Shown here piece after piece: positions 10,158-42,920 of a stretch of DNA of 46,743 nt; position 1 is the stretch's first letter, and every line of letters begins with the position of its first letter. A program made the position numbers and the translations under genes. Where the stretch lies: NCBI GenBank assembly GCA_040755235.1, contig JBFMBJ010000002.1:1-46743 (forward strand). Reading direction: 5' to 3'. The DNA comes from Candidatus Omnitrophota bacterium. Its GTDB lineage: Bacteria; Omnitrophota; Gorgyraeia; Gygaellales; JBFMBJ01. The notes beneath the pieces are model-generated. The model ran no database searches. It saw nothing but the letters and a program-made list of their open reading frames with translations, and was not told the origin of the DNA.

Positions 10158-10163
10158 CTTATT

Positions 10164-10190
10164 AAAAACAAAGAGGGTATTATCCCTCTT
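10164..10190 (-). terminator. Rho-independent terminator/attenuator candidate between the BY-kinase and Wzy-like genes
   Basis: The minus strand reads AAGAGGG-ATAATA-CCCTCTT (7-bp stem) followed by TGTTTTT. It lies about 50 nt after the kinase stop and 13 nt before the next ATG. Confidence 0.5.
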
Positions 10191-10240
10191 AATTTGGTAA
10201 TCTAAAAGTTAGCTTCCTAATAATAAATTTTGGCGTTTTT

Positions 10241-14350: not shown

Positions 14351-14353
14351 ATT

Positions 14354-15196: not shown

Positions 15197-15350
15197 TAGC
15201 CGAGTATAAAACTTACTATTTTACTCATAATTACCCATTTTATTTAAGTTTAATGTAGGTAAAGAGATATGTCAAGGAAATTTAACAGAAGTTAAAGAAC
15301 AATAATGGGTTAGTAACTTAAAAATCCTCTGGGTTTTTGAAAGGGAGGGA

Positions 15351-21439: not shown

Positions 21440-21724
21440 ATGGAAAAACTAAAACAAAAATATAATTTAAAGTACGAAAATATTGTCTGGGCAAAGGTAG
21501 GCAGAAAATATTTAGTAGTCTTGCTAAATAAAAAAGATATAAAAGACTCACTTTTCACAACAAATAAGTGTAGTATTGATATATTAGATTGGCTACTGAC
21601 TAAAAAATCTTCCGAGAAAATTATTAATCTTTTATCCAAAAAATACTCTTTAAGTCATAGACGCGCAAAAACTGACTTTTTAAAATTTATTGCTAAATTA
21701 GAAAGCCTTAAGGTTATAGATTAA
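21440..21724 (+). CDS. PqqD-family protein (RRE-type peptide chaperone)
   Basis: 94 aa. Size and pattern (VGRKYLVVLLNKK...FTTNKCSIDILDWLL...IINLLSKKYSLS...DFLKFIAKLESLKVI) fit the PqqD fold. Confidence 0.65.
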   Translation: MEKLKQKYNLKYENIVWAKVGRKYLVVLLNKKDIKDSLFTTNKCSIDILDWLLTKKSSEKIINLLSKKYSLSHRRAKTDFLKFIAKLESLKVID

Positions 21725-21731
21725 TCTAAAA

Positions 21732-22640
21732 ATGTATAGTAAAGATATTTATCTACATAATATAAAATTAAATTTTAATTGTAATAACTATAAAATCTTT
21801 AAAGATTTTTGCGAGCAGCTTAATTTTCCCAGATTTAGGCAATATAAAAAATATATCAAAGTCAAAATTAATCTTTCTTTAGTTGCTGCTATATCTACCG
21901 ATGAACGAGCTGATATTTTTAATACAGAAGCAAAAAATTTTAATCTAAATTGCTGGATAAAAAATATATCTTTAAAACTCGAGCGTAAAACTAATACAAT
22001 TAACGCGCAATTAATTTATCCAACTCACCTATCAATAGATAATTTGCTGCATCTAATAGTAATCGCCCCGTTAAGAAGAATTTTACAAAAATATAATATA
22101 TTTTTACTCCATGCAGGAGTGGTTTCAAAGAATGATAAAACCATATTGCTCTTTGCTGGCCCGGGCAGAGGAAAAAGCACGCTAACAACTTCCTTCCTCT
22201 TGGCTGGTTACGACGTTCTTTCAGATGAGTTCGCTATCTATAAGGACAAAAAGGTATTTAGCTTTCCCATAAAAATAAAATTAGATAGAAAAACTCTTCT
22301 TTGTCTAAAATGGAACAGAACACTAAGGCCGTGTTTCTACGTTAAGGATTTTTCCTCTTCCCAAGTTATTGAATTTAGCAAGCCCCTGTTGAGTTTATTC
22401 CTGCGCCAGGCAACAGAAAGTTTGAGAATTCCTCGCTTCAGTATGCTTGATCCTCTGGATGCCTTTAGATTTTTAGCACGTGACAAAGTAAATAGCCTTA
22501 CTTACGAAAAAGACCCATTGTTACGCAGACGCCAGCTTGATGCATTAGCTAATATAGCCCAGAAAACAAGATGCTATACCATAATTTATAATTTAAAACA
22601 TATAAAACAGATTCCCAAGATAGTTCAAGAAATTATCTAA
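21732..22640 (+). CDS. HPr-kinase-related P-loop protein
   Basis: 302 aa. LLHAGVVSKNDKTILLFAGPGRGKSTLTTSFLLAGYDVLSDEF parallels the HprK/P catalytic core (H-G...G.SG.GKS...G..L..D). Confidence 0.65.
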   Translation: MYSKDIYLHNIKLNFNCNNYKIFKDFCEQLNFPRFRQYKKYIKVKINLSLVAAISTDERADIFNTEAKNFNLNCWIKNISLKLERKTNTINAQLIYPTHLSIDNLLHLIVIAPLRRILQKYNIFLLHAGVVSKNDKTILLFAGPGRGKSTLTTSFLLAGYDVLSDEFAIYKDKKVFSFPIKIKLDRKTLLCLKWNRTLRPCFYVKDFSSSQVIEFSKPLLSLFLRQATESLRIPRFSMLDPLDAFRFLARDKVNSLTYEKDPLLRRRQLDALANIAQKTRCYTIIYNLKHIKQIPKIVQEII

Positions 22641-22651
22641 AAATCCTCTTT

Positions 22652-24313
22652 CTAATACTTCCTGAAAATTAAATCGAGAAAGGTCTCAACGGTTTTAAAT
22701 AGGAATGCTGACAACCTCAAAAAATAGGCTTTCATTAGAACAAAACCACTACTTTTTAACTTGAATCTTTCTTTCATATAATTTTTTGGAGGAAATATAA
22801 TTTTTAATAAGTATCTTAAGTAGACAATAAATCTTTTAAGTCTTAGACTAAATTTGCCACAGAAAAGAACTAAAATAAATTCAAACGGAATTTTTGCCCT
22901 AAATGTAGGACCTTCTTTGTTAAGCGAGATGGCATCCCTATCCCAAAAAAACTCAAATAATTTCGCTCTGATAAAATTTGGCTTTATCTTTAATAATATT
23001 TCCTCTGGCAAATTTGCACCCATTAATTTAGAGGTCAAATGCAGACTGTAATAGACTAAAGTAGCTAAGTCGCACCTTTTAATAAGATTTAAAAAATCTT
23101 CCCAATTAAGTGAATAGCGAAATTTATTGATTATTTCTTTTATATCATAAAACCAGATAAAACCGCTGAAATTATGTCTGGCAAGGTTAACACATGCTAA
23201 TAGAAGCGTATTCTCTAAAGAAGGAAAATATACTTTCAAATTATTTAAATTTATAGGCCTGGCATTTTGCCAGAAACAATAGTCAAAATAAGGGAAATCT
23301 ATCGCCCATATATTTGATTTTAATTCTAATCTTATGCCATCCATATGAAAATCTATATGATTATCTAAATATCTTAAAGGCAGTTTATTATAATTTCTTT
23401 CTAAAGCCCTCATCCTAAAGCCTAAGGCAAATATAGTGTGGCAAGCCCTAAGCCAATCCTCTTCTTTTACTAATAAATCAATATCTCCCATCCATCTATA
23501 GGAGCTATCGCGATAAAGCTCTATACCTACCTGGGCACCCTTTAAAATAAGTACATCAATTTTTTGTCTGTTAAATTCATTTAATAATCTATAGAGGGCA
23601 TCCCTCACCCTTACATCATGCACAAGTTGTAATCTATTCATATTCTCTAATTCGTCCTGGATCTTTTCTGGCAAAAATCCTATAATGCCTAAATCAGTTA
23701 AGGTCTTTATGAAAATATGGCTAAAAAAATTGAACTTAACTCTATTTGCTATATACTGCCAATCAAGATTTTCTCTAAATAAATTAGATAGCTCTAATCT
23801 TTCGCTATCGCTAAGAGCGTTTTTTATGGATAATCTTAAGATTTTTCTCTCATTAACAAAATCATATTTTTTATAAGTAATTTTTCTAAATAAGACTCTT
23901 GGATAAGAAATAAAAAAATAGAAAAGATTTTTAAATCTGCCTCTCGAGGTATCAAAAGATAATATTTTCTCATCTCGCTTAAGTTTAGTAACCCTGCCGA
24001 CTATATTATCTTCTGCGACAGGCTTGTCAAACTCAAGAAAGTTATCAGCCTTTAGAATAAAAAATTCTTTTTTGCCAATTCTTCTCTTTAAAATAAACCT
24101 ATGGACGATAAAATGGCTGTTATGTCGATAAACCACTAAGTCTCCAAAGCTAATTTTCCTTTCCTTCTCAAAGAATACTTCATCGCCTTCCTTAAGTAGC
24201 GGCATCATTGATTGTCCTTTATATTTAAGAAAAGGCTTTCTGCCCTCTTGAACTGAATCTATATAAAGCTCTTTTGCTAATATTTCTATTTTCTGATGGT
24301 CTGTTTTTATCAT
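22652..24313 (-). CDS. Second fusion of an S26 (SipW/ER-type) peptidase-like domain to an NTP_transf_5-like nucleotidyltransferase
   Basis: 553 aa, a paralogue of 17022-18740. Peptidase boxes are KGQSMMP, VHRFI and LKADN, followed by WMGDIDLLVKEED. Confidence 0.65.
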   Translation of the reverse strand: MIKTDHQKIEILAKELYIDSVQEGRKPFLKYKGQSMMPLLKEGDEVFFEKERKISFGDLVVYRHNSHFIVHRFILKRRIGKKEFFILKADNFLEFDKPVAEDNIVGRVTKLKRDEKILSFDTSRGRFKNLFYFFISYPRVLFRKITYKKYDFVNERKILRLSIKNALSDSERLELSNLFRENLDWQYIANRVKFNFFSHIFIKTLTDLGIIGFLPEKIQDELENMNRLQLVHDVRVRDALYRLLNEFNRQKIDVLILKGAQVGIELYRDSSYRWMGDIDLLVKEEDWLRACHTIFALGFRMRALERNYNKLPLRYLDNHIDFHMDGIRLELKSNIWAIDFPYFDYCFWQNARPINLNNLKVYFPSLENTLLLACVNLARHNFSGFIWFYDIKEIINKFRYSLNWEDFLNLIKRCDLATLVYYSLHLTSKLMGANLPEEILLKIKPNFIRAKLFEFFWDRDAISLNKEGPTFRAKIPFEFILVLFCGKFSLRLKRFIVYLRYLLKIIFPPKNYMKERFKLKSSGFVLMKAYFLRLSAFLFKTVETFLDLIFRKY

Positions 24314-26657: not shown

Positions 26658-27932
26658 TTATTTTGCCGGCGCTAATGCAAAATTGACAGAATGCGAAGAA
26701 ACCAGGCTTAAAATTTCTTCATTAGAAATGTTTTTAATTGGTCGGAATTCCTCATCACTGTAAAAGTAATAATAAGACTCCCACGCTCCGGCGCAAAATG
26801 TCTTTAATCTGCATTCTAGGCATTTTACAGAAAGCCGTAGCCCAGAACTTTTATATCTATGATATAGGCATCCCCCGTCGGCGTGAGAAAAATTAGTAGC
26901 TAAAACTTCGTATCTGCGGTTTATGAAATATTTCCAGTATCGGCTTTTAAATAAACATAAAGGAAACGAAGTAATTCTTACTTTTAAATTTTTTTCAATA
27001 AGGACATCTAAGGCATCCTGAATATATATAGCTGTATCTTTCAGCTTAACTCCGAGAGTTTGGATATTCTTGGCAGCATTGCCTACGTATACCAAAGATT
27101 CAAAAGCAACTCCACCAATGCCTTCGCCAGCTAAGAATTGTGCTGTGGCTTTTAAGTCTTTATAATTTTTTCTATTTATTATAAGTATAATATCAAAATT
27201 CTTAAAGCCAAGCGCCATTAAGTTCCTTATCCCACTAACAGTTTCTTTAAAGCTTCCCTGTCTCTGTGTAAGGGAATCGTGTATTTGAGCAATATGGCTG
27301 TTTAGGCAAACAATCATACCATCAAGCCCAGAGTCTATTATTTCTTTGGCAAAATTTCTATAAGAGAATCTTCTCCCATTTGTCAATAGCCAAGCAGAAA
27401 GATTTCTTTTCTTGGAGAACTCTATTAGATGCTCCAGTCCTTTGAATAAGGTGGGTTCTCCGCCTCCAAAGTGAATCTCTCTGTATTCGCTACTTAAATC
27501 TTCTATCATATGCTCTAACTCATTTAGGGAAAAATTCTTTCTCTTTGTTTTTTCTCCCCCAAAGCAGTACTCGCAATTATTATTGCAATAATAATTTGTA
27601 AAACAGAAAATCTTTCCCAGATAATGCCTGCCCTCGTTAAGGACGCCTTTATCCAAGCTACGCCTCAAGGAATATCCGATCATATCTTGATATGAATATT
27701 CTGGCTGAAAATCTAATTTAACGCTGGAATCTAACATTTTTTTTCCTAAGCAGTCGCCTTGTAGAGCTGTTTTAAGGAAATCACAACGTAGCGACTCTCT
27801 ATCTGAATAATCATCGATAAATGTGGCCTTGGTTCCGTTTGAGAATCTAATCCTATTATCATATCCTACTGTAAAAGATATGTTCGAATCTGGATGGCAA
27901 TTCATATATTTTTGCTTAAGATTAATGGGCAT
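26658..27932 (-). CDS. Radical SAM/SPASM-like enzyme with a ~110-aa N-terminal extension
   Basis: 424 aa. The cluster motif is YYCNNNCEYCF, followed by GGGEPTL, and the C-terminus has KCLECRLKTFCAGAW. It overlaps the PqqD gene upstream by 11 nt. Confidence 0.75.
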   Translation of the reverse strand: MPINLKQKYMNCHPDSNISFTVGYDNRIRFSNGTKATFIDDYSDRESLRCDFLKTALQGDCLGKKMLDSSVKLDFQPEYSYQDMIGYSLRRSLDKGVLNEGRHYLGKIFCFTNYYCNNNCEYCFGGEKTKRKNFSLNELEHMIEDLSSEYREIHFGGGEPTLFKGLEHLIEFSKKRNLSAWLLTNGRRFSYRNFAKEIIDSGLDGMIVCLNSHIAQIHDSLTQRQGSFKETVSGIRNLMALGFKNFDIILIINRKNYKDLKATAQFLAGEGIGGVAFESLVYVGNAAKNIQTLGVKLKDTAIYIQDALDVLIEKNLKVRITSFPLCLFKSRYWKYFINRRYEVLATNFSHADGGCLYHRYKSSGLRLSVKCLECRLKTFCAGAWESYYYFYSDEEFRPIKNISNEEILSLVSSHSVNFALAPAK

Positions 27933-28218
27933 AATTCATTTTTAAGATGAGCTCCTCTTTCTCCAAATCACAAAGCAGAGAAATAGCATCATTTTTCAAT
28001 TCCTCAGCGCCTATTTCTAATTTAGAACCCAAATATTCAATGATTTCTCCCAAGCTTCTCTGTTGTTCAATAAATTGCCATATCAAAGTTCCTGTCTTGT
28101 TTAGGCTATAATAAAAGCCTCTTTCTAAATGCAAAACAACTGCTTCCTGATTTATCAGACGATAACTAACCTTTGCTTTATTAATTTTAAAGCAAGTATC
28201 AATCTCTATCTTTGGCAC
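27922..28218 (-). CDS. PqqD-family RRE protein
   Basis: 98 aa. GTG start with an AAGGAGA SD 7 nt upstream. The PqqD pattern is classic: QEAVVLHLERGFYYSLNKTGTLIWQFIEQQRSLGEIIEYL...DAISLLCDLEKEELI. Confidence 0.8.
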   Translation of the reverse strand: MPKIEIDTCFKINKAKVSYRLINQEAVVLHLERGFYYSLNKTGTLIWQFIEQQRSLGEIIEYLGSKLEIGAEELKNDAISLLCDLEKEELILKMNYAH

Positions 28219-28259: not shown

Positions 28260-28376
28260 CTAAGTTACATTACCCCCTACAGCAATATCTAAGAGTTTAT
28301 ATTTTATAAGCTTGGGCTTTTCGTATTTCTCGGGGCTTTTTCTTACCTCCTTACAATTCTTCCTATCCTTTTTCAT
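28260..28376 (-). CDS. 38-aa candidate precursor peptide, absent from the ORF track
   Basis: My own translation of the minus strand: ATG at 28376, with a GGAGG SD (ccaGGAGGcataacATG) upstream. The product is MKKDRKNCKEVRKSPEKYEKPKLIKYKLLDIAVGGNVT, ending at a TAG at 28260-28262. It lies 41 nt upstream of the PqqD gene. Confidence 0.55.
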   Translation of the reverse strand: MKKDRKNCKEVRKSPEKYEKPKLIKYKLLDIAVGGNVT

Positions 28377-32627: not shown

Positions 32628-33632
32628 TTACTGACTAATACTTTGAAACTTTAAATACTTTTCTTCGGCAAAACTTTTACAAACCGGATCGCAACTTGTA
32701 AATGTCTTATTAAAAGCCCAACTCCTTGCCGGGCACCACGGACAAAATTGCCTCAGATGACAAGAATTGCATTTAAAATTTTTATCTGGTTTTAAATCCT
32801 GGATTATTTTCTTAAGTCTTTGCCAACAGCGGGCTAATGAAGTTTCTAAAATATCGAAATGAGGATAATCTATGTGTAGACACATCTTAAGAGTGCCAAA
32901 GGGGCTAATAATTAAACTATTAGTTCCTACGCCGCAGGAAAATAATCTACCATTATGCCTGCTTGTTAAAGGAGAAACAGAATTATGCTCCTTAAGACCA
33001 TCAAAAGATGTACCAGATAAAGAAGGCATAAGCAAATTGCAAATTCTCAAATTGCCTCCATAGTCAGCAGAAAATTTTTTTAATGAATTAATTTCGCCTT
33101 TGTTTTCATTTAAGTAACAAGTCTTAAAATCGAGATGGATTTTGTTTTTGCGTAAGTACTCAATAGCAGAAAAAGTTTTATTGAAAAACCCCCTCGCCCC
33201 GGTAATATGGTCAAAATTAGTTTTACTTAAAGAATTAATATTAACATCCAGACGGCTTGGCACAATCCTACCTAATTCCCGAGCTTTTTTTCTATCAACC
33301 AACGAGGCATTAGTATGTATGGAAATATTAAACCCTTTTCTTTTCGCATACCATAATATGTCAAAAATATCCTTTCTTAAGAAAACTTCTCCACCTGTAA
33401 AGCCCAAGTAAAAACAGCCCAAGTCCGACAATTCATCAAGAATAAAAAATATCTTTTTTGCATTTAATTGCCTCTGGGAAGATTCCTCTCTGTACTGCGC
33501 TGGCACATAGCAATAAACGCAATTAAAATTACATTCGTAGGTAAGTTCAAACATCGCCTGTAAAGGAAATTGCTTAACCTTAGCAGAATCCGCTAAACGC
33601 TCTCGAAAGATGTTATAGTGTTGAGACCGCAT
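32628..33632 (-). CDS. Radical SAM/SPASM enzyme (paralogue set)
   Basis: 334 aa. The cluster motif is ELTYECNFNCVYCY, followed by GFTGGEVFLR, then CGVG...GTLKMCL...CNSCHLRQFCPWCPA. Confidence 0.85.
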   Translation of the reverse strand: MRSQHYNIFRERLADSAKVKQFPLQAMFELTYECNFNCVYCYVPAQYREESSQRQLNAKKIFFILDELSDLGCFYLGFTGGEVFLRKDIFDILWYAKRKGFNISIHTNASLVDRKKARELGRIVPSRLDVNINSLSKTNFDHITGARGFFNKTFSAIEYLRKNKIHLDFKTCYLNENKGEINSLKKFSADYGGNLRICNLLMPSLSGTSFDGLKEHNSVSPLTSRHNGRLFSCGVGTNSLIISPFGTLKMCLHIDYPHFDILETSLARCWQRLKKIIQDLKPDKNFKCNSCHLRQFCPWCPARSWAFNKTFTSCDPVCKSFAEEKYLKFQSISQ

Positions 33633-33665: not shown

Positions 33666-34043
33666 TTATATTGATAACCTATCATTAGTAAATTTAATTA
33701 GGGAATTAATTTCTTTTGGCAATTTTTGTAATTCTCCAGATATATATTTATACTCGCCCTCTTTTAATAGGCCCCTTATCTTTGCTTTATTTGCCCAATC
33801 AAAAGATTCATCAAGTGAGCCATAACTATAACGATAAAAATTGACCTTATCCTTTTTAAAATATCTTCCAAATCCTTCAGCGATATTAGAAGATATAGAA
33901 TCCACTGCCCTTACCAACTGCCTGCCAACAGTATCCTTTGCAAAATAATCCCATTTAATCACAACATCCCAAACGTAATTGGACAAATTAAAAGCAATTT
34001 TATAAGCACTAATATCATTTAATTCTAAATATCTTTTTGTCAT
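33666..34043 (-). CDS. Four-helix-bundle protein of the 23S rRNA intervening-sequence protein family
   Basis: 125 aa. AEGFGRYFKKDKVNFYRYSYGSLDES matches the family's EG.gR...f..fl..a.GS..E signature. Confidence 0.75.
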   Translation of the reverse strand: MTKRYLELNDISAYKIAFNLSNYVWDVVIKWDYFAKDTVGRQLVRAVDSISSNIAEGFGRYFKKDKVNFYRYSYGSLDESFDWANKAKIRGLLKEGEYKYISGELQKLPKEINSLIKFTNDRLSI

Positions 34044-34045
34044 AG

Positions 34046-34096
34046 TAATTTAACGGTTTATTTTAGCAATTTAACAGTTTGACAATTTAACAGTTT
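34046..34096. repeat. Three direct copies of (T/C)AATTTAAC(G/A)GTT(T)
   Basis: TAATTTAACGGTT lies at 34046-34058. CAATTTAACAGTTT lies at 34068-34081 and again at 34083-34096. The third copy overlaps the stop of the rSAM gene at 34087. Confidence 0.7.
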
Positions 34097-35163
34097 AACT
34101 TTGCTCTTTCCTGTGACATTGCCTTGGCAAACTGGCAAAAATATGGCGTGGGAGATTCTTCATTGCCAGTTTCTAAAAATGCTATTGCCGGGCAATTAAT
34201 GCAGTTCGACCTCAAAGAGCATTTCCTGCACTCAGATTTAGTTCTAAAATGTTGCTTTAGAACCTGTGGCAGTATTTCATAAAAGCCCTCTTTAAAACTC
34301 GTTGTCCTTAAATCAACGCTGAATTTATCCGAGAGCATGCAGAATTTAAGCCTGCCAAATGGGTCAATAATAAATTCTTCCATCCAGCTATTACATTGAT
34401 AGAGAAAGCCTCTTCCTCTCTTTAAACTACTTAAACTGCTGTGTAAATTTCTTTTATATTCCTGCCATATATCCAAATCTTCTTTAGCAAGGTCTGTTAA
34501 TTCTCTGAAGGAAAGCCTTAAATTACTTAACGCATTATCAAGGTTTAACCTGGGATAAAGTATCGGGTCGTATTTGAAATAATACTTATCTTTTCCTTTT
34601 CCTAAAAACTTTTCAGTAAATTCCTTTATTTTTACAATCTCATTTTTATTCTGTTTAAGCGCATTTGCCTTTAAAATGAGAGGCAATTTTCTTTCTTTTA
34701 TTTTTTTAATATTTTCCAGGGTTTTCGCAAATGAGCCGCTTACTTGGGTAACTGCCTCATATGTTGCCTGCGTAATAGCGTTTAGGGTAATCTCGATAGA
34801 AAACGGTGGGAATTTCTCAAGATAATCTAAAATTTCATCTGTGAATAAAAGGCCATTACTAAATATGGTTATAATAAAACCTTTCTTCTTAACATAGGAA
34901 TAAATTTCCAAAAAATCATTCCTTATTAATGGCTCGCCTCCGCTAAATACAAGCGAGAGGCAGCCTTCTTTAGAGAGCTGGTTAAAGATATTTCTAAATT
35001 CTTCAGATGATAATTCTTTCCCTTTCTCTTCGCAGCCTTTGCAATAACAATGTATACAATTTAGATTACATCTATAGGTAAGCTCAATATGGCCTTTCCA
35101 GGGATACTGGTCTTTTTTTCTAAACAGACTTGTAAAAAAATGCGCTGAGCTATGCGTTTTCAT
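34087..35163 (-). CDS. Radical SAM/SPASM enzyme (paralogue set)
   Basis: 358 aa. The cluster motif is ELTYRCNLNCIHCY, followed by VFSGGEPLIR, then CNSW...GRLKFCM...CRKCSLRSNCINCPA. Confidence 0.85.
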   Translation of the reverse strand: MKTHSSAHFFTSLFRKKDQYPWKGHIELTYRCNLNCIHCYCKGCEEKGKELSSEEFRNIFNQLSKEGCLSLVFSGGEPLIRNDFLEIYSYVKKKGFIITIFSNGLLFTDEILDYLEKFPPFSIEITLNAITQATYEAVTQVSGSFAKTLENIKKIKERKLPLILKANALKQNKNEIVKIKEFTEKFLGKGKDKYYFKYDPILYPRLNLDNALSNLRLSFRELTDLAKEDLDIWQEYKRNLHSSLSSLKRGRGFLYQCNSWMEEFIIDPFGRLKFCMLSDKFSVDLRTTSFKEGFYEILPQVLKQHFRTKSECRKCSLRSNCINCPAIAFLETGNEESPTPYFCQFAKAMSQERAKLNC

Positions 35164-35179
35164 CTTTTCAATTAACTGT

Positions 35180-35374
35180 TTAAGAAGAAGGGGTGTTGGG
35201 AGTTTTGGAACATGAAAATGACAGGTCGCCTTTACTTGTTCCGCAATAACTATAACTCTTCCTGCCAGTTAAAGTTCCGTATCCTGTCGTAATACAATTA
35301 CAAGTTATAACTGCCTGCTCAGGGTTGAGTTTTATGCGGGTGATTTCAGGTTCAAATTTTGGCTTTGTTGGCAT
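35180..35374 (-). CDS. Candidate RiPP precursor peptide A2 (64 aa)
   Basis: MPTKPKFEPEITRIKLNPEQAVITCNCITTGYGTLTGRKSYSYCGTSKGDLSFSCSKTPNTPSS. An AGGAGG SD lies 6 nt upstream. It is a paralogue of 36006-36200 and is flanked by maturase-type genes. Confidence 0.8.
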   Translation of the reverse strand: MPTKPKFEPEITRIKLNPEQAVITCNCITTGYGTLTGRKSYSYCGTSKGDLSFSCSKTPNTPSS

Positions 35375-35388
35375 TTGACACCTCCTAT
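35273..35388. repeat. ~116-nt near-identical repeat, copy 1, covering the leader-coding part and SD of precursor A2
   Basis: It aligns to 36099-36214 at a constant offset of 826 nt, with about 4 mismatches by eye. Confidence 0.85.
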
Positions 35389-35390
35389 GT

Positions 35391-35972
35391 CTAATTACCG
35401 AACTCTTTTAAGGCTAAATTTTTTGTTACCAAGTCATAAGTAATGACTCTCTGATATCTACTACAGTTATTATTACTAAAGTTGTTTTTTAATGAATTTA
35501 TATTTAAAAAAGGATATTTTTTAATTTCGTTTATTTGTCCGAGAATTAAATTATTTACTACGGTATTATTAATTAGATTATCGTTTGTATATAAATTCAA
35601 CAGTTCAATATCATAAATAGCTGCATCAGCAATAATCGTATGTCCTTGTTTAAGTATTGTTTTCCTTGTATCATTAATAGCGCTTTCTAATTTTTTAAGA
35701 GTACTCTCGTCAGTTACCTGGCCAAAAAAAACATTCGACACATCGCCGGTAAAAAACTCTGAAAAACAGGTTCCCTCAATACAATAAGAAACTATCTTTT
35801 GCCTGCCATCTTTAACTCTTTCTGCTATGAAAAAATTTGAATCCCTTATTTGTATGCCTCCTATATATAAACGAATCTTGTCCCTTTTTTGGTCACACCC
35901 TTCTGAAAATAAGTAAGCAGCATTAAATAAAAAAATAACACTTATTATCCCTATCCACATTTTCTTGTTCAT
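35391..35972 (-). CDS. Secreted or membrane-anchored protein of unknown function
   Basis: 193 aa. The N-terminal hydrophobic segment is MNKKMWIGIISVIFLFNAAYLF. An AAGGAG SD is present. I recognise no motif in it. Confidence 0.6.
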   Translation of the reverse strand: MNKKMWIGIISVIFLFNAAYLFSEGCDQKRDKIRLYIGGIQIRDSNFFIAERVKDGRQKIVSYCIEGTCFSEFFTGDVSNVFFGQVTDESTLKKLESAINDTRKTILKQGHTIIADAAIYDIELLNLYTNDNLINNTVVNNLILGQINEIKKYPFLNINSLKNNFSNNNCSRYQRVITYDLVTKNLALKEFGN

Positions 35973-35994
35973 ATTTCACTCCTTTTCCTAATCT

Positions 35995-36012
35995 GTCTTA
36001 ATGACTTAAGAC
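35995..36012 (-). other. 7-bp stem / 4-nt loop hairpin overlapping the stop codon of precursor A1
   Basis: GTCTTAA-TGAC-TTAAGAC on the plus strand; the stems are exact reverse complements. The stem is A/T-rich, so stability is modest. Confidence 0.4.
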
Positions 36013-36200
36013 GATGCTGTGGCAGCAACTTTCGAACATGTAAATGACAGGTCGCCTTTAGCTGTCTGACAAAGTGTATAAGATCTGCTAAGGGTATAAG
36101 TTCCATAGCCTGTCGTAATACAATTACAAGTTATGACTGCCTGCTCAGGGTTGAGTTTTATGCGGGTGATTTCAGGTTCAAATTTTGGCTTTGTTGGCAT
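36006..36200 (-). CDS. Candidate RiPP precursor peptide A1 (64 aa)
   Basis: MPTKPKFEPEITRIKLNPEQAVITCNCITTGYGTYTLSRSYTLCQTAKGDLSFTCSKVAATASS. I moved the start from 36221 to the ATG at 36200. The reasons are a GGGGGTG SD 6 nt upstream and a start and length identical to paralogue A2. Confidence 0.8.
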   Translation of the reverse strand: MPTKPKFEPEITRIKLNPEQAVITCNCITTGYGTYTLSRSYTLCQTAKGDLSFTCSKVAATASS

Positions 36201-36214
36201 TTGACACCCCCTAT
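36099..36214. repeat. ~116-nt near-identical repeat, copy 2, covering the leader-coding part and SD of precursor A1
   Basis: See copy 1 at 35273-35388. Confidence 0.85.
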
Positions 36215-36220
36215 TTAGCA

Positions 36221-37261
36221 TTAGAGATACAATAAAGCCTGTTTATAAAATTCTTCGTCTGGATTTAAGGCACAATCGTAATCAATATCTGCAAATCCTC
36301 TTTTCTCGCCACTAATAATGCCTCTTAAAAATTTAGTTTCGTTTGAACAATCATGCAAAACCACATTTTTCCACCCCTCTTTGGCTGCTACCTCAAAAAT
36401 ATTATATGTTAATTGCCTACTTTTTATCGGCGATACGTAACCTAACTTATAGCGATAAATAGTACCTTCTTTGCTAAAATTATCTTTGGTTTTAGGAAAT
36501 AACTGTAATTCTGCAAAATGTATATGGTCAACCCCAGTATCCAATATTGCCTTTTTCTTTTTCATAAAACTTTCGTAAAAGAGAGTAAACATAGGAGACT
36601 CAATGCAAAGATACTTAAAATATTTCCTTGCCTGGCTCATGTTTTTAATGACTTCTTCAGAACAGTTTGTTGCTGCCAAATTAAACCGTATTTCATCAAG
36701 GCCGGCATCTTTTAACTTTTTTAAATTTTCTTTGTTGGCAAGCAAGCCATTTGTATACAGCCATTGATGGTAGCCCAGATTATGAATGAATTTCATAAGA
36801 GGTAACATCTTATCCATATCCATCAAGGGTTCAAAATGTAACCACGCTACGCCGTTAAGGAATTTCTTAGCATGCGTTTCAAATAGCAATTCCATATCCT
36901 TTTCATTAAATAATCTCCTCGAGACCAGATACAAATCGTGGGGAATAAATTCCTGCTCCGTGGTTTCTTTCTCGCCAAAATAATAACAAAAAGAACAATT
37001 AAGATTACATTTAGTAGTAGTCCTAATCTGCGTCCATCTGCCTTTTAAGCAACAACGCTTACAACCAGGAGTTAAATCGCCATTACCCCAAACTGCAGTG
37101 TAGTCAAAATTGTCTAATTTTAAGCCAGGAATCTCCTTCTGGCGTTTTCTTATCTGCGAGATAACTTTTTTCTCTAATGCAACTTCAATTTCTAAAAGCT
37201 TTGCACCAGCTACTCTTTTTTCAAATTCAGATTCAGTCTGTTTTGGCTTTTTCCTAATCAT
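36221..37261 (-). CDS. Radical SAM enzyme without an obvious SPASM tail and with extra N-terminal cysteines
   Basis: 346 aa. The cluster motif is TTKCNLNCSFCYY, preceded by TPGCKRCCLKG. The stop lies 20 nt upstream of the precursor A1 start. Confidence 0.75.
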   Translation of the reverse strand: MIRKKPKQTESEFEKRVAGAKLLEIEVALEKKVISQIRKRQKEIPGLKLDNFDYTAVWGNGDLTPGCKRCCLKGRWTQIRTTTKCNLNCSFCYYFGEKETTEQEFIPHDLYLVSRRLFNEKDMELLFETHAKKFLNGVAWLHFEPLMDMDKMLPLMKFIHNLGYHQWLYTNGLLANKENLKKLKDAGLDEIRFNLAATNCSEEVIKNMSQARKYFKYLCIESPMFTLFYESFMKKKKAILDTGVDHIHFAELQLFPKTKDNFSKEGTIYRYKLGYVSPIKSRQLTYNIFEVAAKEGWKNVVLHDCSNETKFLRGIISGEKRGFADIDYDCALNPDEEFYKQALLYL

Positions 37262-37281
37262 TTATCCTCTTTTTGTTTCCT

Positions 37282-38895
37282 TTAAACTAACTCCTGCTTA
37301 GCTCCTAATTGCCTTAAAAAACTATCTGCCTTTATATCTATTCTTTTCCTTAGAATTTGGGGCAACTCAACCCTACCATATTTATGATAGTAGAAACCAG
37401 CGAATTCCTTAAACAATCCAGTAAGTTTAATCAGGGCTACTATGTTTAATGCCTTATTCAATTTTCCATCTCCCTGCTCGCTTTCAGATTTTTTGTTTAA
37501 CTCTGAAAATATTGAGTAAGCCCAAGGGTGGTTTAAACTTAACCAGGAATCTAATGCCACACAGATGTCAGAAAATCTTCTTGAAAGCGAATCAGATAAC
37601 AGGTAGATTACTTCTTTAAAAAACTCATTGCCAAATACATAAAGTAGCATAAATTTTAGATTGTCCATCCTCTCTAATTCTTCTTTGCCGAAAGTATTTG
37701 CTTGTAATACAAAATGGGGTGCTTTTTTTTCATATTTGATTTTGAATTCTTTAGCATAGTTGCGTAAATATGTCCCTGGTAAAAGCATTAATTTCGGTAT
37801 TTCAATCGAGGGCGGCTTTAAACTGCAAACCCAATTAATAGATTTCTTAAAAGATGAGTAATTGTCTCCTGGCAGACCTTCGATTATCTGAATTACATAA
37901 TTTATTTTCTTTTTATTAAGTAAGCCGATATTTTGCTTAAAACGAACTGGGCTGAAATCGCGCTTAACCAAAGCCAGTGCTTTTCTATTTGTACTTTGTA
38001 GGCCTATCTCTAAGAAACCAACTCCTGCTTTAGAAAGAAGTTCAATTAGCTCCTTATCCAATAGTTCTGCTTTTAATTCAACGTGAAGATGAGAATCTTT
38101 CTTATGTTTAATAAAGAAGCGCAATATTTCCTTTGACCTATCAATTTTTAAATTAAATGTCGGGTCCATCAAGTATATGATCTTAATATTTTTACTTAAT
38201 AAATATCTTAATTCCTCCTTTACTCTTTGCATGGAAAAGAATCTTACGCCCCAGAATTGTTTATGATAATAACAATAACGGCAACTAAAAGTGCAGCCTC
38301 GCATTGTCTCTAAACAGGCATCTTTCTTGTTAACTTTAATTGTCCCGCTTAAGTATGGAGAAGGTATGGTGTCTAAGTTTTGAATTTGTGCGCGAAAAGG
38401 AGTTTCAATAACATTGCCGTTATTTCTATAACAAAGGCCCTTGATCTTCGACAAATCTCTGCTATCATTAAGCCATGAGTCAACAAGCTCCTTAAAGGTC
38501 TCTTCTCCTTCATTTATCACAACAGCATCTATTAGCGGTTCAGCCCTTAGCAGGTTTTTTGCCTGGGCTGAAACTTCTGGACCGCCTAAAACAATCTTAA
38601 GATAAGGGAAATTGCGTTTCAGTAACCGCACTATCTCTAAGGTTTTATCAATATTCCAGACATAACAGGAAAACCCTAGCATATGAGGCTTGAGTCTGGC
38701 TAATTTAAAAGTTATCGCCTCATTAGAATCAAAAATAGAAAAAGTCTGAATCTTAATGTCAACTAATTTAGAGAACTCACTATATCTTGAAAAATAGACC
38801 TTTAGATAAGATAGGGCAAGCTCTTTATATCTATCTTTGAGATATAAGCTGACTAAAATGATTCTTTTCTTCTGCCGACTTACCTTTTTAATCAT
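37282..38895 (-). CDS. B12-binding-domain radical SAM enzyme (class B, methyltransferase-like)
   Basis: 537 aa. The N-terminus has a B12-like domain (RIILVSL...LGFSCYVWN...LGGPEV), followed by MRGCTFSCRYCYY. Confidence 0.8.
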   Translation of the reverse strand: MIKKVSRQKKRIILVSLYLKDRYKELALSYLKVYFSRYSEFSKLVDIKIQTFSIFDSNEAITFKLARLKPHMLGFSCYVWNIDKTLEIVRLLKRNFPYLKIVLGGPEVSAQAKNLLRAEPLIDAVVINEGEETFKELVDSWLNDSRDLSKIKGLCYRNNGNVIETPFRAQIQNLDTIPSPYLSGTIKVNKKDACLETMRGCTFSCRYCYYHKQFWGVRFFSMQRVKEELRYLLSKNIKIIYLMDPTFNLKIDRSKEILRFFIKHKKDSHLHVELKAELLDKELIELLSKAGVGFLEIGLQSTNRKALALVKRDFSPVRFKQNIGLLNKKKINYVIQIIEGLPGDNYSSFKKSINWVCSLKPPSIEIPKLMLLPGTYLRNYAKEFKIKYEKKAPHFVLQANTFGKEELERMDNLKFMLLYVFGNEFFKEVIYLLSDSLSRRFSDICVALDSWLSLNHPWAYSIFSELNKKSESEQGDGKLNKALNIVALIKLTGLFKEFAGFYYHKYGRVELPQILRKRIDIKADSFLRQLGAKQELV

Positions 38896-39806
38896 CTCTT
38901 CAAAGAAATCCCCCTTACAAACTCAATCATCTCTTTATCGTTTTTAAACCCTAATTTAAAACAGGGAACTTCTTTTGTTAACTGCGACGAAAATCTGATA
39001 GCATTGCCTATGCCTTTTCTATCCCAAAAGGTATGAAACGTGCAGGGATACAAAAGATTAAATGCCTTAACAGTTGGTACTAATTGGAAGGAATTAAATT
39101 TTGAGTGCTCGAGGAAAAAAACAGAGTTTAAATCAGTTGTTTCTATCTTAGAGATAAGATAGTCAGTGAATTCGCCGTGCCAAGGACAACCATAAATTAA
39201 GAATTTATCTTTATTCTTTCTAATAATAATTCTATCATCGTTTAACACTGTTGCCTCACTAAACTTATGCCAGATTCTCGCTGTAGTTGATTTGCCGTCG
39301 CCTGATTTGCCTACAAATAAGAGCCCCCTTTTATCAATATCTTTCATGCCTACTGCGTGGACAAAGATGCCGTCCCGACCTGTTATATAATTTATCAGAA
39401 TTACCTGAAGCGCATCGTAGATAATATCCTCTGGTTTCCAAGAACCATCAGCATCGGCCGTAGTTTTATAATAAACCTTTCCTCGGGTGAAATCCTGGTT
39501 AAGAAAAATCTCATGTATTTTACTTACAACAAATGTCGCTAATATAAATAAACCATTGCTTTTATACAAAGCCCAGTTTTTTTCGTTTGTGGCAGGATGG
39601 CGAGTTAGAAAAATTCTTTTCTTACTAAACTTGACTTTTGGTAATTGATTAACTACTTCTATTGTCAAAACAATTTGCGCTCGCTTTTTGCCTTTATAAA
39701 TAAAGTTACAAAAACGCCAACTTATTTTCTCGTTAATTGGCTGCATGGGAAATTTACTCTTTAGTTCTATTATTATGTCAGCAATCTTTAGTTTTAGAGT
39801 AGTCAT
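38892..39806 (-). CDS. HPr-kinase-related P-loop protein
   Basis: 304 aa. FVHAVGMKDIDKRGLLFVGKSGDGKSTTARIW...VLNDDRIII matches the HprK/P core pattern. The gene overlaps both neighbours. Confidence 0.65.
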   Translation of the reverse strand: MTTLKLKIADIIIELKSKFPMQPINEKISWRFCNFIYKGKKRAQIVLTIEVVNQLPKVKFSKKRIFLTRHPATNEKNWALYKSNGLFILATFVVSKIHEIFLNQDFTRGKVYYKTTADADGSWKPEDIIYDALQVILINYITGRDGIFVHAVGMKDIDKRGLLFVGKSGDGKSTTARIWHKFSEATVLNDDRIIIRKNKDKFLIYGCPWHGEFTDYLISKIETTDLNSVFFLEHSKFNSFQLVPTVKAFNLLYPCTFHTFWDRKGIGNAIRFSSQLTKEVPCFKLGFKNDKEMIEFVRGISLKR

Positions 39807-40854
39807 CAGACACCAAACTCGCCATTTCGCACCACCATTTTATTGGTGCTTCTAAATCGCCTGTTTCAAGATATGCATCGCCTGGACAAGTAAAGCAGTG
39901 CTTTTTTAACTGGCAAAACCTGCACTTTGAATCTGTAACATATCCTCTTTGTCTCATATCTCTAAAGACAATAAGGGCCTCTTCAATAGGGGAAGTTAAA
40001 ATATCAGAACATTCATTCCTCAGAAAAGGACAGAACAATATCTGTCCATAAGGAGTTAGGGTCAAGCTACTCCCGCAACCTGCCGAACAGTAGAAGGGAG
40101 AATCTTCTTGATTTGCCTTCCCATCAGACCTTGAGCATTCCTTAAAGAAACTTAATTGGGGGTCTACCTGCTTATTAATTAAAAGGGCTTCCCTTGGGCT
40201 TAGACGCAAGGAACAAGGAAACTGCTCATTATTAAGGCGTGCTCTAATATAAAAATCCGGAAAAAATTTAAGATTTAAACTTTCTACGAATCTCCTTATC
40301 TGCCAAATTTCTTTCACATTATCATTTATCAATATTGTTTTAATTTTTAAAGGCATCTTGTTCTTAATCAATAGCCTTAAGCCCTGCATTGACTTAGAAA
40401 AACTATCTTTAAGCCCAGAGATTTCTTCAAAAGTATCTTTTCTAATAGAATTCAGAGTGATCTCAATAACAAAAGGCGGTTTTTTTTGCAGGCGCTTAAC
40501 AATTTCTTCATTTATAGAATATGAGGTAGTAAATATAGTAATGATAAAACCCAATTTCTTAGCATAATCATAAATTTCGAAGAAATCTTCCCTTGCCAAT
40601 GGGTCTCCGCCAGTAAAACAAAGCCAGATGACCCCGAGCAGATAAAGTCTATCCAAGGTAGATTTAACCTGCTCTGTAGATAATTCTTTTTTAATAAGTT
40701 CTTTTTTGTTGTAACAGTCGCTATAACAGTATTTGCAATGGAAATCACATTTAAAGGTTAGTTCAAACTGACAGAGGTTTACACTACCGCTTTGCCAGTT
40801 TCTTTGGTGGGTTTTTAAGCTAAAGTCCTTATACTGAAGTTCTTTCATATACAA
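39778..40854 (-). CDS. Radical SAM/SPASM enzyme (paralogue set)
   Basis: 358 aa. The cluster motif is ELTFKCDFHCKYCY, followed by CFTGGDPLAR, then CSAGCGSS...GQILFCP...CRFCQLKKHCFTCPG. Confidence 0.85.
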   Translation of the reverse strand: MYMKELQYKDFSLKTHQRNWQSGSVNLCQFELTFKCDFHCKYCYSDCYNKKELIKKELSTEQVKSTLDRLYLLGVIWLCFTGGDPLAREDFFEIYDYAKKLGFIITIFTTSYSINEEIVKRLQKKPPFVIEITLNSIRKDTFEEISGLKDSFSKSMQGLRLLIKNKMPLKIKTILINDNVKEIWQIRRFVESLNLKFFPDFYIRARLNNEQFPCSLRLSPREALLINKQVDPQLSFFKECSRSDGKANQEDSPFYCSAGCGSSLTLTPYGQILFCPFLRNECSDILTSPIEEALIVFRDMRQRGYVTDSKCRFCQLKKHCFTCPGDAYLETGDLEAPIKWWCEMASLVSDDYSKTKDC

Positions 40855-40863
40855 TTTAGCAGT

Positions 40864-41181
40864 TTAAATAACCGCCTTTATCTCTTTCAAGTCTTTAAAA
40901 AGACTTTTTAGTTCTCTTTCGGCCTCTTTCTCATTTGTGTCAAATTCTTTTAACATCTTATCTTTTATGTTATCTATTGAATTTTTACCATCTATCATAT
41001 CCCAGATACGAGAAGCACAATTATTTAAAGTGTAGATGCAGTTAAGATCGTCAGAGGCCTTAAAGATCGGCACTAAGATGGTTTCTCCTTCTATTTTTCT
41101 GGTAACCATATCAGGATTTTTCTTAAATACTAAAGAATCAGATAAGTCAATTGCACTTTTTTTTAATGTTTTTTTCTGCAT
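40864..41181 (-). CDS. PqqD-family RRE protein; first gene of the long minus-strand operon
   Basis: 105 aa. The PqqD pattern is VTRKIEGETILVPI...CIYTLNNCASRIWDMIDGKNSIDNIKDKMLKEF...ELKSLFKDLKEIKAV. A G-rich SD is present. Confidence 0.8.
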   Translation of the reverse strand: MQKKTLKKSAIDLSDSLVFKKNPDMVTRKIEGETILVPIFKASDDLNCIYTLNNCASRIWDMIDGKNSIDNIKDKMLKEFDTNEKEAERELKSLFKDLKEIKAVI

Positions 41182-41377
41182 ACTGCCCCCCCTTTTTTTT
41201 CATTTGTTTATTAATAATAAGTTGAGTTGCCGGCTAGAAAACTATTGCTTCTGTAGGATTTCAAGTAAGAACGTTGGTACATTTGGTGGGTTATAATATT
41301 TTGCCTTTTAAATTTAGTTTAATCGCGGTCTTGAGGAAAGTCAAGGCAAATTTCACGGCTTTTAAGGTAAAGCCTTC

Positions 41378-41406
41378 TTGACGTAAGGCATTAACTGGGC
41401 TATAAT
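41378..41406 (+). promoter_or_regulatory. Near-consensus sigma70 promoter for the PpiD-like gene
   Basis: TTGACG (41378-41383), a 17-nt spacer, then TATAAT (41401-41406). This is 38 nt upstream of the ATG at 41445, which has a GGGAGAGG SD. Confidence 0.6.
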
Positions 41407-41444
41407 TGCAAGATTCGCTAAAAGCCATAAATAAGGGAGAGGAT

Positions 41445-42920
41445 ATGCTCAAACAATTAAGAAATAAGAAAACTGCTAAGAGAATATTCTTTTTTCTGGC
41501 GCTTATTATTGTGCCGGCATTTGTGCTCTGGGGCTCTGGAAGCCTTATCCGTGACAAGTCAAAATCTAATTTTGCCGGAGAAATATTCGGAAAAAAAGTT
41601 CCTATCGATGTCTACCGCGATTGCCTAATGGCAGTTCGCGACCAGGCAATAATCCAATTCGGTGAAAATTTCAATCAAATTCAGGGCATGTTGAATTTAG
41701 AAGAGCGCGCCTGGGAAAGATTGATACTTCTAACTAAGGCAAAACAGGAAAAAATCCGGATAAGCGACAAAGAAGTTGTAGAACAAATTGCTGACTTTCC
41801 TTTTTTTCAAAAAGACGGTAAATTTAACGAGCAAATCTACCAACAGGTGTTGCGCTATGGTTTAGGTACCACTGCGAAGATATTTGAACAACATATCCGG
41901 GAATCACTGATGATTAGCGAGCTATTCAAAAAAGCCACCCAAAATATCATTATCACCGACGAAGAGGTGTTAAGTGAGTTTAAAAGAGAAAATGAGAAAA
42001 TTAAAGTTGCCTTAATCGCTTTTAATAATAGAGACTTTGAGGTTGAGGTTTCAGCCAGTCCAGAAGAGACAAAGGATTATTTTGATAAAAATAAGGAGAA
42101 TTTCCTCTTGCCCGCTTCTATAAATATCGAATATATTGGCGCTAATCTGAGCCCTGATTCGACTGCGGAGCAAAAACAAGAGGCAAAAGACAAGCTTAGT
42201 TCTATTTTGGAACTTGCTAAAAAGGACAACGATTGGAAGGCATTGAGCGAAAAAAGCAATCTTACCTTTAAAAATACCGGTCTTTTCAGCATAGAAGAGC
42301 CTATCCCAGGGATTGGCTGGTCTAATGAGTTTTTCCAGGCAATTTTACCATTAAAGCCGGGCGAGGTGAGTGATATTATTGCAACTGAGGCAGGCTTTTT
42401 CTTGGCAAGGTTATTAGAGAAAGTCGAGCCGCGAATACCTGAATTTTCCGAAGTAGAGAATAAAGTTAGCCAAGAGATAAAAAAGGAAAAGGCAAAAGAA
42501 TTATCGCTGGCTAAGGCAGAAAATTTTAAGAAAATAATTGAAGAGAAATTAAAACAAGATAAGGTATCTGAATTCAAAAAAATAGCTAATGAGTTAAATC
42601 TTAAAACGAGCGAGACTGACTTTTTTAAAAGGAGTCAATATATCGATAATATTGGAATGTCTTTTGAATTTTCTCAAAAAGCATTTTCCCTCTTAGATAA
42701 ACCTTCGGCGTTGGAAACTGTTACTACACCACAGGCAAGTTATATAATGAAATTGGCAGGCGTAATGCAAGTCGATATGGAAACTTTTAAGAAAGAAAAT
42801 GTTGGATATCGCGGGAAACTTGCGGCGGGAAAAAAAGAAGAGGCATTTTTTAGTTTAGTACAAAAATTAAAAAACGAAGCACACCTTAAAAGTTATATTA
42901 CAAATATCACTCCACCTTAA
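41445..42920 (+). CDS. PpiD/SurA-like periplasmic chaperone
   Basis: The start is trimmed from 41406 to 41445, based on the SD and because the -10 box would otherwise lie inside the ORF. The N-terminus MLKQLRNKKTAKRIFFFLALIIVPAFVLWGSG is the PpiD-type anchor. A long helical, Lys/Glu-rich chaperone-like body follows. Confidence 0.55.
   Translation: MLKQLRNKKTAKRIFFFLALIIVPAFVLWGSGSLIRDKSKSNFAGEIFGKKVPIDVYRDCLMAVRDQAIIQFGENFNQIQGMLNLEERAWERLILLTKAKQEKIRISDKEVVEQIADFPFFQKDGKFNEQIYQQVLRYGLGTTAKIFEQHIRESLMISELFKKATQNIIITDEEVLSEFKRENEKIKVALIAFNNRDFEVEVSASPEETKDYFDKNKENFLLPASINIEYIGANLSPDSTAEQKQEAKDKLSSILELAKKDNDWKALSEKSNLTFKNTGLFSIEEPIPGIGWSNEFFQAILPLKPGEVSDIIATEAGFFLARLLEKVEPRIPEFSEVENKVSQEIKKEKAKELSLAKAENFKKIIEEKLKQDKVSEFKKIANELNLKTSETDFFKRSQYIDNIGMSFEFSQKAFSLLDKPSALETVTTPQASYIMKLAGVMQVDMETFKKENVGYRGKLAAGKKEEAFFSLVQKLKNEAHLKSYITNITPP

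Follow-up and report, generated by a model that had tools for sequence, protein, structure and literature searches.

A probable RiPP precursor family with a conserved leader and hypervariable cores in Omnitrophota

We analyzed a 46,743-nucleotide stretch of Candidatus Omnitrophota bacterium DNA (contig JBFMBJ010000002.1 of assembly GCA_040755235.1; hereafter, the window) that contains twin genes for two 64-amino-acid (aa) peptides, A1 and A2. These peptides are probably paralogous precursors of an undescribed family of RiPPs (peptides that ribosomes synthesize and that are modified post-translationally), which occurs mostly in Omnitrophota. The associated genes appear to merge two kinds of machinery, one like that of sactipeptides and ranthipeptides, and the other like that of linear polyphosphorylated peptides (LPPs; Popov et al. 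2026, Nat Commun; PMC13381572).

The twin genes and their peptide family

The twins lie on the minus strand, and each is contained in one copy of a DNA repeat that includes its ribosome-binding site (RBS):

35180-35374, minus strand: precursor-like peptide A1, 64 aa; open reading frame (ORF) with the Shine-Dalgarno (SD) site AGGAGGTG; family hidden Markov model (HMM) E = 6.6e-23
36006-36200, minus strand: precursor-like peptide A2, 64 aa; SD-linked ATG at 36200; family HMM E = 6.6e-24
35157-35397, no strand: DNA repeat copy 1, covering the RBS of A1 with its leader and core; member of repeat family D1 (spacing 826 nt), aligned with copy 2
35983-36223, no strand: DNA repeat copy 2, covering the RBS, leader and core of A2; repeat and alignment

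For A2, we took the ATG at 36200 as the start instead of the ATG at 36221 to which the ORF list extends, because the former is preceded by an SD site (GGGGGTG) and aligns with the start of A1 and of the whole family. Both SD sites lie 5 nt before the ATG. The peptides agree at 51 of 64 positions, with no difference in residues 1-34 and 13 differences in residues 35-64. Both keep Cys44, Cys55, the block GDLSF(S/T)CSK and a C-terminal Ser-Ser. The two repeat copies are 826 bp apart, start to start, and are near-identical from the RBS through codon 34. A first-pass annotation of the window, made from the letters alone, had reported the twin ORFs with their strong SD sites, their spacing, the identical leader, the kept Cys and Ser features and a repeat reaching into the RBS, and our alignments agree with it in every detail.

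Changes between the twins are concentrated in the core. The leader has 0 amino-acid changes in 34 positions and the core has 13 in 30 (Fisher p = 9e-6), while the nucleotide changes number 3 of 102 and 33 of 90, respectively (p = 8e-10). Sorted by synonymous divergence (dS) and nonsynonymous divergence (dN), the changes are as follows:

Leader codons 1-34: 3 synonymous and 0 nonsynonymous changes; dS 0.14, dN 0
Core codons 35-64: 10.5 synonymous and 22.5 nonsynonymous changes; dS 0.75, dN 0.44

Synonymous divergence in the leader and RBS is about 5-fold below that in the core. Given that the leader dS is so much lower, purifying selection alone is insufficient to account for the identity of the leaders. 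The pattern indicates that the leader and RBS were homogenized by gene conversion, or that the cores were swapped in the manner of cassettes.

Model scans gave no Pfam or NCBIfam match for A1 or A2, and a word-indexed protein search with A1 alone recovered only A1 itself. When 1.84 billion cluster representatives were scanned exhaustively with HMMER (cut-off E <= 1e-3), there were 707 matches, almost all of which are 63-90 aa long and share the same N-terminus. Two of the top or long matches, P0002 (2274 aa) and P0088 (1068 aa), are repetitive and eukaryote-like, and we judged them to be spurious. A profile search of 90%-identity clusters gave 713 proteins. Of the 120 matches listed for this search, most are single-member clusters; all 120 lack Pfam domains, and their source names are absent or "hypothetical protein", except for one evident mis-annotation. 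Literature searches on the leader motif, on Omnitrophota RiPPs, on HPr kinase with PqqD and radical S-adenosylmethionine (rSAM) enzymes, and on the SynChlorMet and GeoRSP systems found the family described nowhere. Going by these sequence searches, the family comprises at least 700 sequence clusters and is not part of a named class. The first-pass annotation had assigned the leader to no named class either, which is consistent with the absence of model matches, of named relatives among the matches listed (bar the mis-annotation) and of the motif from any paper found. The HMM search shows, in addition, that the peptides are not unique.

A conservation profile of 271 unique full-length members shows how the peptides are built. 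Positions 1-23 are near-invariant, with the sequence M-x-[RK]-K-P-K-F-[KR]-P-x-I-T-R-[VI]-K-L-N-P-E-Q-A-V-L. Position 23 is L or I family-wide, and the consensus continues with x-C-x-C, in which both Cys (C25 and C27) are near-invariant. In 89% of members, an aromatic residue or His occupies position 28, and G31 is present in 67%. The stretch after C27 spans 26-78 residues, is hypervariable and has many Gly, Ser and Thr residues. It contains a third invariant Cys, 16-28 residues past C27, and at least one further Cys in 64% of members. The last residue is Ser (92%) or Thr (7%). Almost every core sequence in the family is unique. A1 and A2 are typical members, unusual only by I23 and I28.

The pairing of a conserved leader with a variable core, which the first-pass annotation regarded as the pattern of a RiPP substrate, therefore holds for the twin paralogues and for orthologues across the 271 members. 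An AlphaFold2 (AF2) model of the peptide, based on a 116-sequence alignment, has no confident autonomous fold (pLDDT 61, pTM 0.25), which would fit an unstructured substrate. The N-terminus is highly charged and has no hydrophobic signal-peptide core.

The conserved gene cassette

We scanned one genome per GTDB species and obtained 60 loci with family members, and assigned their ORFs to window proteins by best match. The loci contain 83 family peptides, with 1-3 divergent paralogues per locus. Forty-four of the 60 are labeled Omnitrophota, Omnitrophica or Ca. Gygaella, and the others are labeled Elusimicrobia, Planctomycetales, NPL-UPA2, WOR-3 and others. The window genes closest to the twins are listed here with the number of loci that have a homologue. 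One of them encodes a PqqD-type RiPP recognition element (RRE).

40864-41181, minus strand: PqqD-family RRE, conserved partner of the peptide; Pfam PqqD E = 5.9e-11; 46 of 60 loci
34087-35163, minus strand: rSAM/SPASM maturase, orthogroup 3, usually right after the precursor; seven conserved SPASM Cys; 42 loci
32628-33632, minus strand: rSAM/SPASM maturase, orthogroup 2; Pfam Radical_SAM and SPASM, Cys pattern; 39 loci
39778-40854, minus strand: rSAM/SPASM maturase, orthogroup 4; Pfam Radical_SAM, CX3CX2C and seven conserved SPASM Cys; 38 loci
38892-39806, minus strand: P-loop kinase with predicted HPr-kinase fold (HprK-like); HprK_rel_B match, AF2 pLDDT 91; 37 loci
37282-38895, minus strand: B12-binding rSAM enzyme, lineage-specific accessory; Pfam B12-binding and Radical_SAM; 3 loci
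36221-37261, minus strand: 346-aa rSAM enzyme without SPASM, lineage-specific accessory; Pfam Radical_SAM only; 2 loci

The usual order, all on the same strand, is (signal peptidase I (SpI)-like peptidase), PqqD, peptide, rSAM/SPASM_3, rSAM/SPASM_2, HprK-like kinase, rSAM/SPASM_4, ABC exporter and NTP_transf_5. At least one of the five core genes (PqqD, the three rSAM/SPASM genes and the HprK-like gene) is present in 52 of 59 loci, and all five occur in conserved order in 29. Where at least 7 kb of sequence follows the first peptide, 26 of 36 loci carry the three rSAM/SPASM genes and the kinase. The co-occurrence with an RRE and maturases, which had been proposed as a check on the RiPP assignment, is therefore strong.

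The conserved maturases are the three rSAM/SPASM enzymes, the HprK-like kinase and the PqqD protein. The first-pass annotation had put the B12-binding rSAM enzyme and the 346-aa rSAM enzyme at the center of the pathway, but their distribution makes them lineage-specific accessories. It had correctly placed PqqD, rSAM and kinase-like genes next to the twins; the exporter that it also counted among the neighbors is about 15 kb away in the window. In most related loci, the exporter is directly attached to the cassette, typically at its end. The locus most closely related to the window cluster is L020, which has the accessory rSAM gene (67% identical), the B12-binding rSAM gene and a gene for a 23S rRNA intervening-sequence protein (23S-IVP).

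The PqqD gene is directly upstream of the peptide gene in most loci. In four loci of a single metagenome-assembled genome, JAHJHM01, the PqqD frame even runs without a stop into a family peptide (L021, L023, L030 and L049), which directly links the RRE to the peptide. The fusions (that in L021, and those at L023 8868-9623, L030 9533-10255 and L049 7151-7990) have linkers of about 40-90 aa that are rich in Lys, Glu and Arg. The fusion genes of this genome are scattered, and their unrelated neighbors include SMC and a HemN-like gene.

All three rSAM/SPASM orthogroups retain CX3CX2C and seven SPASM cysteines. Among solved structures, rSAM/SPASM_3 is nearest to that of SkfB, a sactisynthase (6efn, E = 6e-17); a glycerol dialkyl glycerol tetraether (GDGT)/macrocyclic archaeol synthase (7tol) ranks second, ahead of PqqE and YydG. 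The B12-binding rSAM enzyme is a probable C-methyltransferase, judging by its domains; its matches to KedN5 and TIGR03975 are below the cut-off.

In 37 loci, the kinase gene is interleaved, in the same orientation, with the rSAM/SPASM genes. All 36 kinase homologues match HprK_rel_B; the ScmC model is matched by 33 of them, and that of the true HPr(Ser) kinase by 19. Sequence-only searches of the PDB with the kinase found only P-loop matches. For the AF2 model (pLDDT 91), however, all 50 Foldseek matches listed from the PDB are phosphoenolpyruvate carboxykinase (PEPCK) or HPr kinase/phosphatase. With its P-loop (GKSGxGKST) and the modeled fold of the HprK C-terminal domain, the protein is predicted to have the HPr kinase/PEPCK fold. 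Most kinase homologues are assigned PF27840.1 in precomputed annotation.

Genes for a possible leader peptidase, a transferase and an exporter are also present in the window:

17022-18740, minus strand: S24/NTP_transf_5 fusion, candidate leader peptidase and phosphate-decorating transferase; Pfam and NCBIfam sigpep_I_arch, motifs GDSMYP, IHRL and KADN
22652-24313, minus strand: second S24/NTP_transf_5 fusion; archaeal signal peptidase I model and motifs
18724-20511, minus strand: MsbA-like ABC exporter without a peptidase domain; Pfam ABC_membrane and ABC_tran; 29 loci

Both fusions keep the GxSMxP, HR and KADN motifs (Ser, His and Asp), whose spacing resembles that of the S29/H68/D93 triad reported for LppS, the leader peptidase of LPPs. 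By HMM, the S24 domain is present in 32 loci, either standalone (about 140 aa) or fused to NTP_transf_5, and NTP_transf_5 is present in 25. In many loci, SpI-like genes are directly upstream of PqqD.

The cassette is often inside polysaccharide-export loci, with AAA22/HD genes often upstream and Wza/Wzz downstream. In the window, positions 1-15200 contain PMT_2, GT2, B12-binding rSAM, methyltransferase, Wzx, deacetylase, Wzy, Wzz-tyrosine kinase, Wza, HD and AAA22 genes. The flanks (1-15200 and 41406-42920) comprise a complete polysaccharide locus and, on the other side, a divergent PpiD/SurA-like gene. Elsewhere, many Omnitrophota loci have AAA22/HD/Wza/Wzz genes beside the cassette, and L053 and L056 have PpiD there.

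Two further genes lie among the cassette genes of the window:

35391-35972, minus strand: 193-aa ORF, hydrophobic at its N-terminus, located between A1 and A2; no Pfam or NCBIfam match, membership uncertain
33666-34043, minus strand: 23S-IVP (PF05635, four-helix bundle), inserted within the cassette

The 193-aa ORF has a homologue in 0 of the 60 related loci, and could be an immunity protein, an accessory protein or a lineage-specific insertion. The 23S-IVP gene also occurs in L009, L010, L020 and L056, and adjoins rSAM/SPASM_3 in most of them. Its identity across loci is 73-80%, versus 40-57% for the flanking maturases, which suggests a recently spread passenger gene. A scan of positions 34900-41500 for promoters and terminators found no enrichment over shuffled sequences, and no convincing attenuator after the precursors.

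The window contains two other PqqD genes. One (21440-21724, plus strand) is paired with a HprK_rel_A-like kinase (21732-22640, plus strand; E = 7.5e-16, below the cut-off), and this pair adjoins the second S24/NTP_transf_5 fusion. The group at 21440-24313 looks like an LPP-like module. We found no precursor near the pair, and a homologue of the pair occurs in 0 of the 60 loci. The other PqqD gene (27922-28218) is directly downstream of a 38-aa candidate precursor (28260-28376, minus strand), MKKDRKNCKEVRKSPEKYEKPKLIKYKLLDIAVGGNVT, which is unrelated to A1 and A2. This candidate carries YEKPKL, an instance of the [Y/W]xxPx[L/V/I] RRE-binding motif of lasso peptide and LPP leaders. Genes for a HxsC-like rSAM enzyme, a GT4 protein and a SPASM rSAM enzyme follow downstream. 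Small ORFs in a syntenic position, with GY[EQ]KPxL[IV]KFK, also precede PqqD homologues in two loci (L027 9803-9949 and L028 16962-17156).

Proposed pathway and alternative explanations

If A1 and A2 are RiPP precursors, the PqqD protein would bind the conserved N-terminal leader and present the peptide to the enzymes. The three rSAM/SPASM enzymes would then cross-link the core. Thioether bridges of the sactipeptide or ranthipeptide type, formed from the three invariant Cys, are the leading option because the number of these Cys matches the number of maturases. The HprK-like kinase may phosphorylate Ser, most likely the near-invariant C-terminal one (Ser64), as in paeninodin and pseudomycoidin, and the NTP_transf_5 domain may decorate the phosphate. 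The SpI-like S24 domain would remove the leader with the help of the RRE, as LppS does in LPPs. Cleavage might occur near V22-[I/L]23-[A/S/T]24 | C25, a site that we propose speculatively from the -3/-1 rule of signal peptidases. The ABC pump would export the product. The B12-binding and 346-aa rSAM enzymes would add lineage-specific tailoring, probably C-methylation, and the twin genes could supply two cores, under one leader, to one pathway.

Several points weigh against this reading or parts of it. The anatomy of the genes, their synteny and the enzyme folds come directly from the data, whereas we infer every chemical step. Enzymes of the rSAM/SPASM type also form C-C and C-O links and epimerize residues, so thioethers are only the likeliest outcome. 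The C-terminal phosphosite is suggested by conservation and by the analogy with paeninodin, but the phosphosite of LPPs is core Ser3 and not the C-terminus (PMC13381572). In place of the [Y/W]xxPx[L/V/I] RRE motif that lasso peptide and LPP leaders carry, this leader has F-x-P-x-I and L-N-P-E-Q. All matches of the cassette enzymes to curated NCBIfam models are far below the cut-offs. The exporter and S24/NTP_transf_5 genes of the window are 12-18 kb from the twins, with the second PqqD/HprK pair (21440-22640) alongside, which makes it ambiguous which kinase and which peptidase serve A1 and A2.

Lastly, some family members are orphans among housekeeping genes: the copy in L013 is between BirA and BioB, and that in L048 is between a TonB receptor and MnmA. 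The first-pass annotation had stated that free-standing homologues without maturases would speak against RiPP substrates. These few orphans partly fit that description. Dispersed precursor genes are, however, known for other RiPPs, such as the prochlorosins.

The alternative that survives best is that the peptides are substrates of the rSAM/SPASM enzymes only, yielding a bacteriocin of the sactipeptide or ranthipeptide type. The genes for the kinase, S24/NTP_transf_5 and polysaccharide would then be part of another pathway that is merely adjacent, e.g., for capsule or an LPP-like product. The presence of several modules in the window (the PqqD/HprK_rel_A and S24/NTP_transf_5 group, and the other PqqD gene with its own candidate precursor) speaks for this alternative, and the proximity of rSAM/SPASM_3 to SkfB is also in line with it. 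Nonetheless, we regard this explanation as unlikely. Against it stand the kinase gene, interleaved between rSAM/SPASM genes in 37 loci, and the SpI-like genes, directly upstream of PqqD in many, and we see no other obvious reason why a C-terminal Ser or Thr would be 99% conserved.

A second possibility is a scaffold role similar to that in the PqqA or mycofactocin systems, in which the peptide gives rise to a small cofactor or signal. The product would then keep only the C-x-C, the third Cys and the C-terminal Ser, with the variable middle as a spacer to be discarded. PqqD with rSAM/SPASM is also the signature of pyrroloquinoline quinone (PQQ) and mycofactocin systems, models for PqqE and the mycofactocin rSAM enzyme (MftC) are among the matches, and the conserved features are limited to few residues. 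However, these matches are far below the cut-offs (PqqE, 73-89 vs 381 bits; MftC, 74-90 vs 265 bits). In addition, 1-3 divergent paralogues per locus and highly diverse cores are typical of diversified end products, and the cassette includes an ABC exporter, so we consider a scaffold very improbable.

We give the least credence to the idea that the peptides are not enzyme substrates but serve the polysaccharide locus as regulators or as small Cys-containing proteins, secreted or structural, with an N-terminal export or targeting signal. The Wza/Wzz/AAA22/HD context and the orphan copies would be compatible with it. However, the charged N-terminus has no signal-peptide core, the peptide has no confident predicted fold, and a PqqD-type RRE, a kind of protein known to bind leaders, is encoded right beside the peptide and in some cases fused to it.

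Returning to the RiPP interpretation, the products may act as antibiotics or as capsule-linked surface molecules. One speculative version, to which we assign a low probability, is that the peptides are stapled and hypervariable, and that their C-terminal Ser phosphate is joined to, or extended into, capsule polysaccharide by NTP_transf_5 and the glycosyltransferase/Wzx-Wzy-Wza machinery, forming a surface "barcode" or primer of Omnitrophota nanobacteria. If true, this barcode or primer would be genetically encoded and rapidly diversifying, and would serve host or partner recognition rather than being a diffusible antibiotic. With at least 700 clusters and nearly all cores unique, the family points to extensive unexplored chemistry or, alternatively, to a function of Omnitrophota at the surface or in recognition that is diversifying. 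Since the adjacent enzymes are compactly encoded, they and the twins make up a unit that could be tested directly by heterologous expression.

Comparison with known systems

The rSAM/SPASM enzymes resemble the maturases of sactipeptides and ranthipeptides (SkfA/SkfB, SCIFF/CteB and PapA/PapB) in their seven auxiliary-cluster Cys, and the cores likewise contain Cys. Unlike in those systems, the RRE is a separate PqqD protein that is not fused to the rSAM enzyme, and each cassette has three paralogous maturases, plus a kinase, a SpI-like peptidase and an NTP transferase. The maturases score 45-71 bits against the SCIFF, PapB, AlbA, StsB, SkfB and CefB models, whose cut-offs are 300-850. The peptides match neither SCIFF nor other curated precursor models, and we rejected membership in SCIFF and NHLP/Nif11 based on the Pfam and NCBIfam scans.

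Lasso peptides of the paeninodin and pseudomycoidin type also have an HprK-like kinase, NTP_transf_5 and a PqqD-type RRE, and their precursors end in a Ser that is (poly)phosphorylated. For pseudomycoidin, PsmK is the kinase acting on the C-terminal Ser, and a hexose is attached by PsmN (PMC9266682). By contrast, neither A1 nor A2 has a YxxP/WxxP motif. We rejected a lasso peptide here: the Asn-synthase-like cyclase and the B2 transglutaminase-like protease are absent from all window ORFs scanned with Pfam. PQQ and mycofactocin systems were rejected as well, given the bit scores above and a hypervariable core that is not PqqA- or MftA-like.

The in silico systems SynChlorMet (Scm) and GeoRSP, defined in NCBIfam/TIGRFAM, share with our cassette a PqqD homologue, an HprK-like protein and at least two PqqE-like rSAM/SPASM enzymes. 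ScmC, ScmD, ScmE/F, GeoRSP and HprK_rel_B are among the best NCBIfam matches of the cassette enzymes. All scores against the models of both systems, including GeoRSP PqqD, are nevertheless far below the cut-offs, e.g., for ScmC (17.8 vs 125), ScmD (23.8 vs 100), ScmE/F (53-89 vs 400) and the GeoRSP rSAM enzyme (56-80 vs 400). To our knowledge, no precursor has been identified for SynChlorMet or GeoRSP, whereas a precursor family is evident here. A widespread type of cassette, consisting of PqqD, an HprK-like protein and several rSAM/SPASM enzymes, is thereby supplied with a precursor family.

Among described systems, LPPs come closest. Their core set consists of LppS, a SpI-like leader peptidase that depends on the RRE, the discrete RRE LppB, the HprK-like LppK, the NTP transferase LppN and an MsbA-like pump (PMC13381572). 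Our cassettes have apparent counterparts of the whole set: a discrete PqqD-type RRE, a kinase resembling HprK, an archaeal-type SpI-like peptidase, an NTP_transf_5-type transferase and an MsbA-like pump. LPP clusters lie within capsular polysaccharide loci and encode 1-3 precursors that are conserved at the N-terminus but highly variable at the C-terminus (PMC13381572), and the new family also occurs in capsular or exopolysaccharide loci, with 1-3 precursors of the same layout. The S24 peptidase, NTP_transf_5 and the polysaccharide locus tie the system to LPPs, a connection that the first-pass annotation lacked.

The differences from LPPs are also substantial. The LPP leader, YxxPxVLxHQxIxFETxxS, and the leader found here, KFKPxITRVKLNPEQAVLxCxC, are unrelated, with only a loose similarity at "P..VL". 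Three rSAM/SPASM orthogroups are conserved here (38-42 loci), whereas the LPP paper mentions no rSAM enzyme (PMC13381572), so these cassettes depart from the linear-product type, i.e., the core set without a cyclase or cross-linking enzyme. Invariant Cys and a C-terminal Ser also set the new peptides apart, as do cases in which one protein combines the S24 domain with the NTP transferase domain. Finally, LPPs were stated to be restricted to Bacillota (PMC13381572), while the hosts here are Omnitrophota. The logic of LPPs, namely RRE-guided phosphorylation by an HprK-like kinase, a SpI-type leader peptidase and the context of a capsule locus, would thus extend beyond Bacillota to an uncultivated phylum, where it appears to be coupled to rSAM cross-linking.

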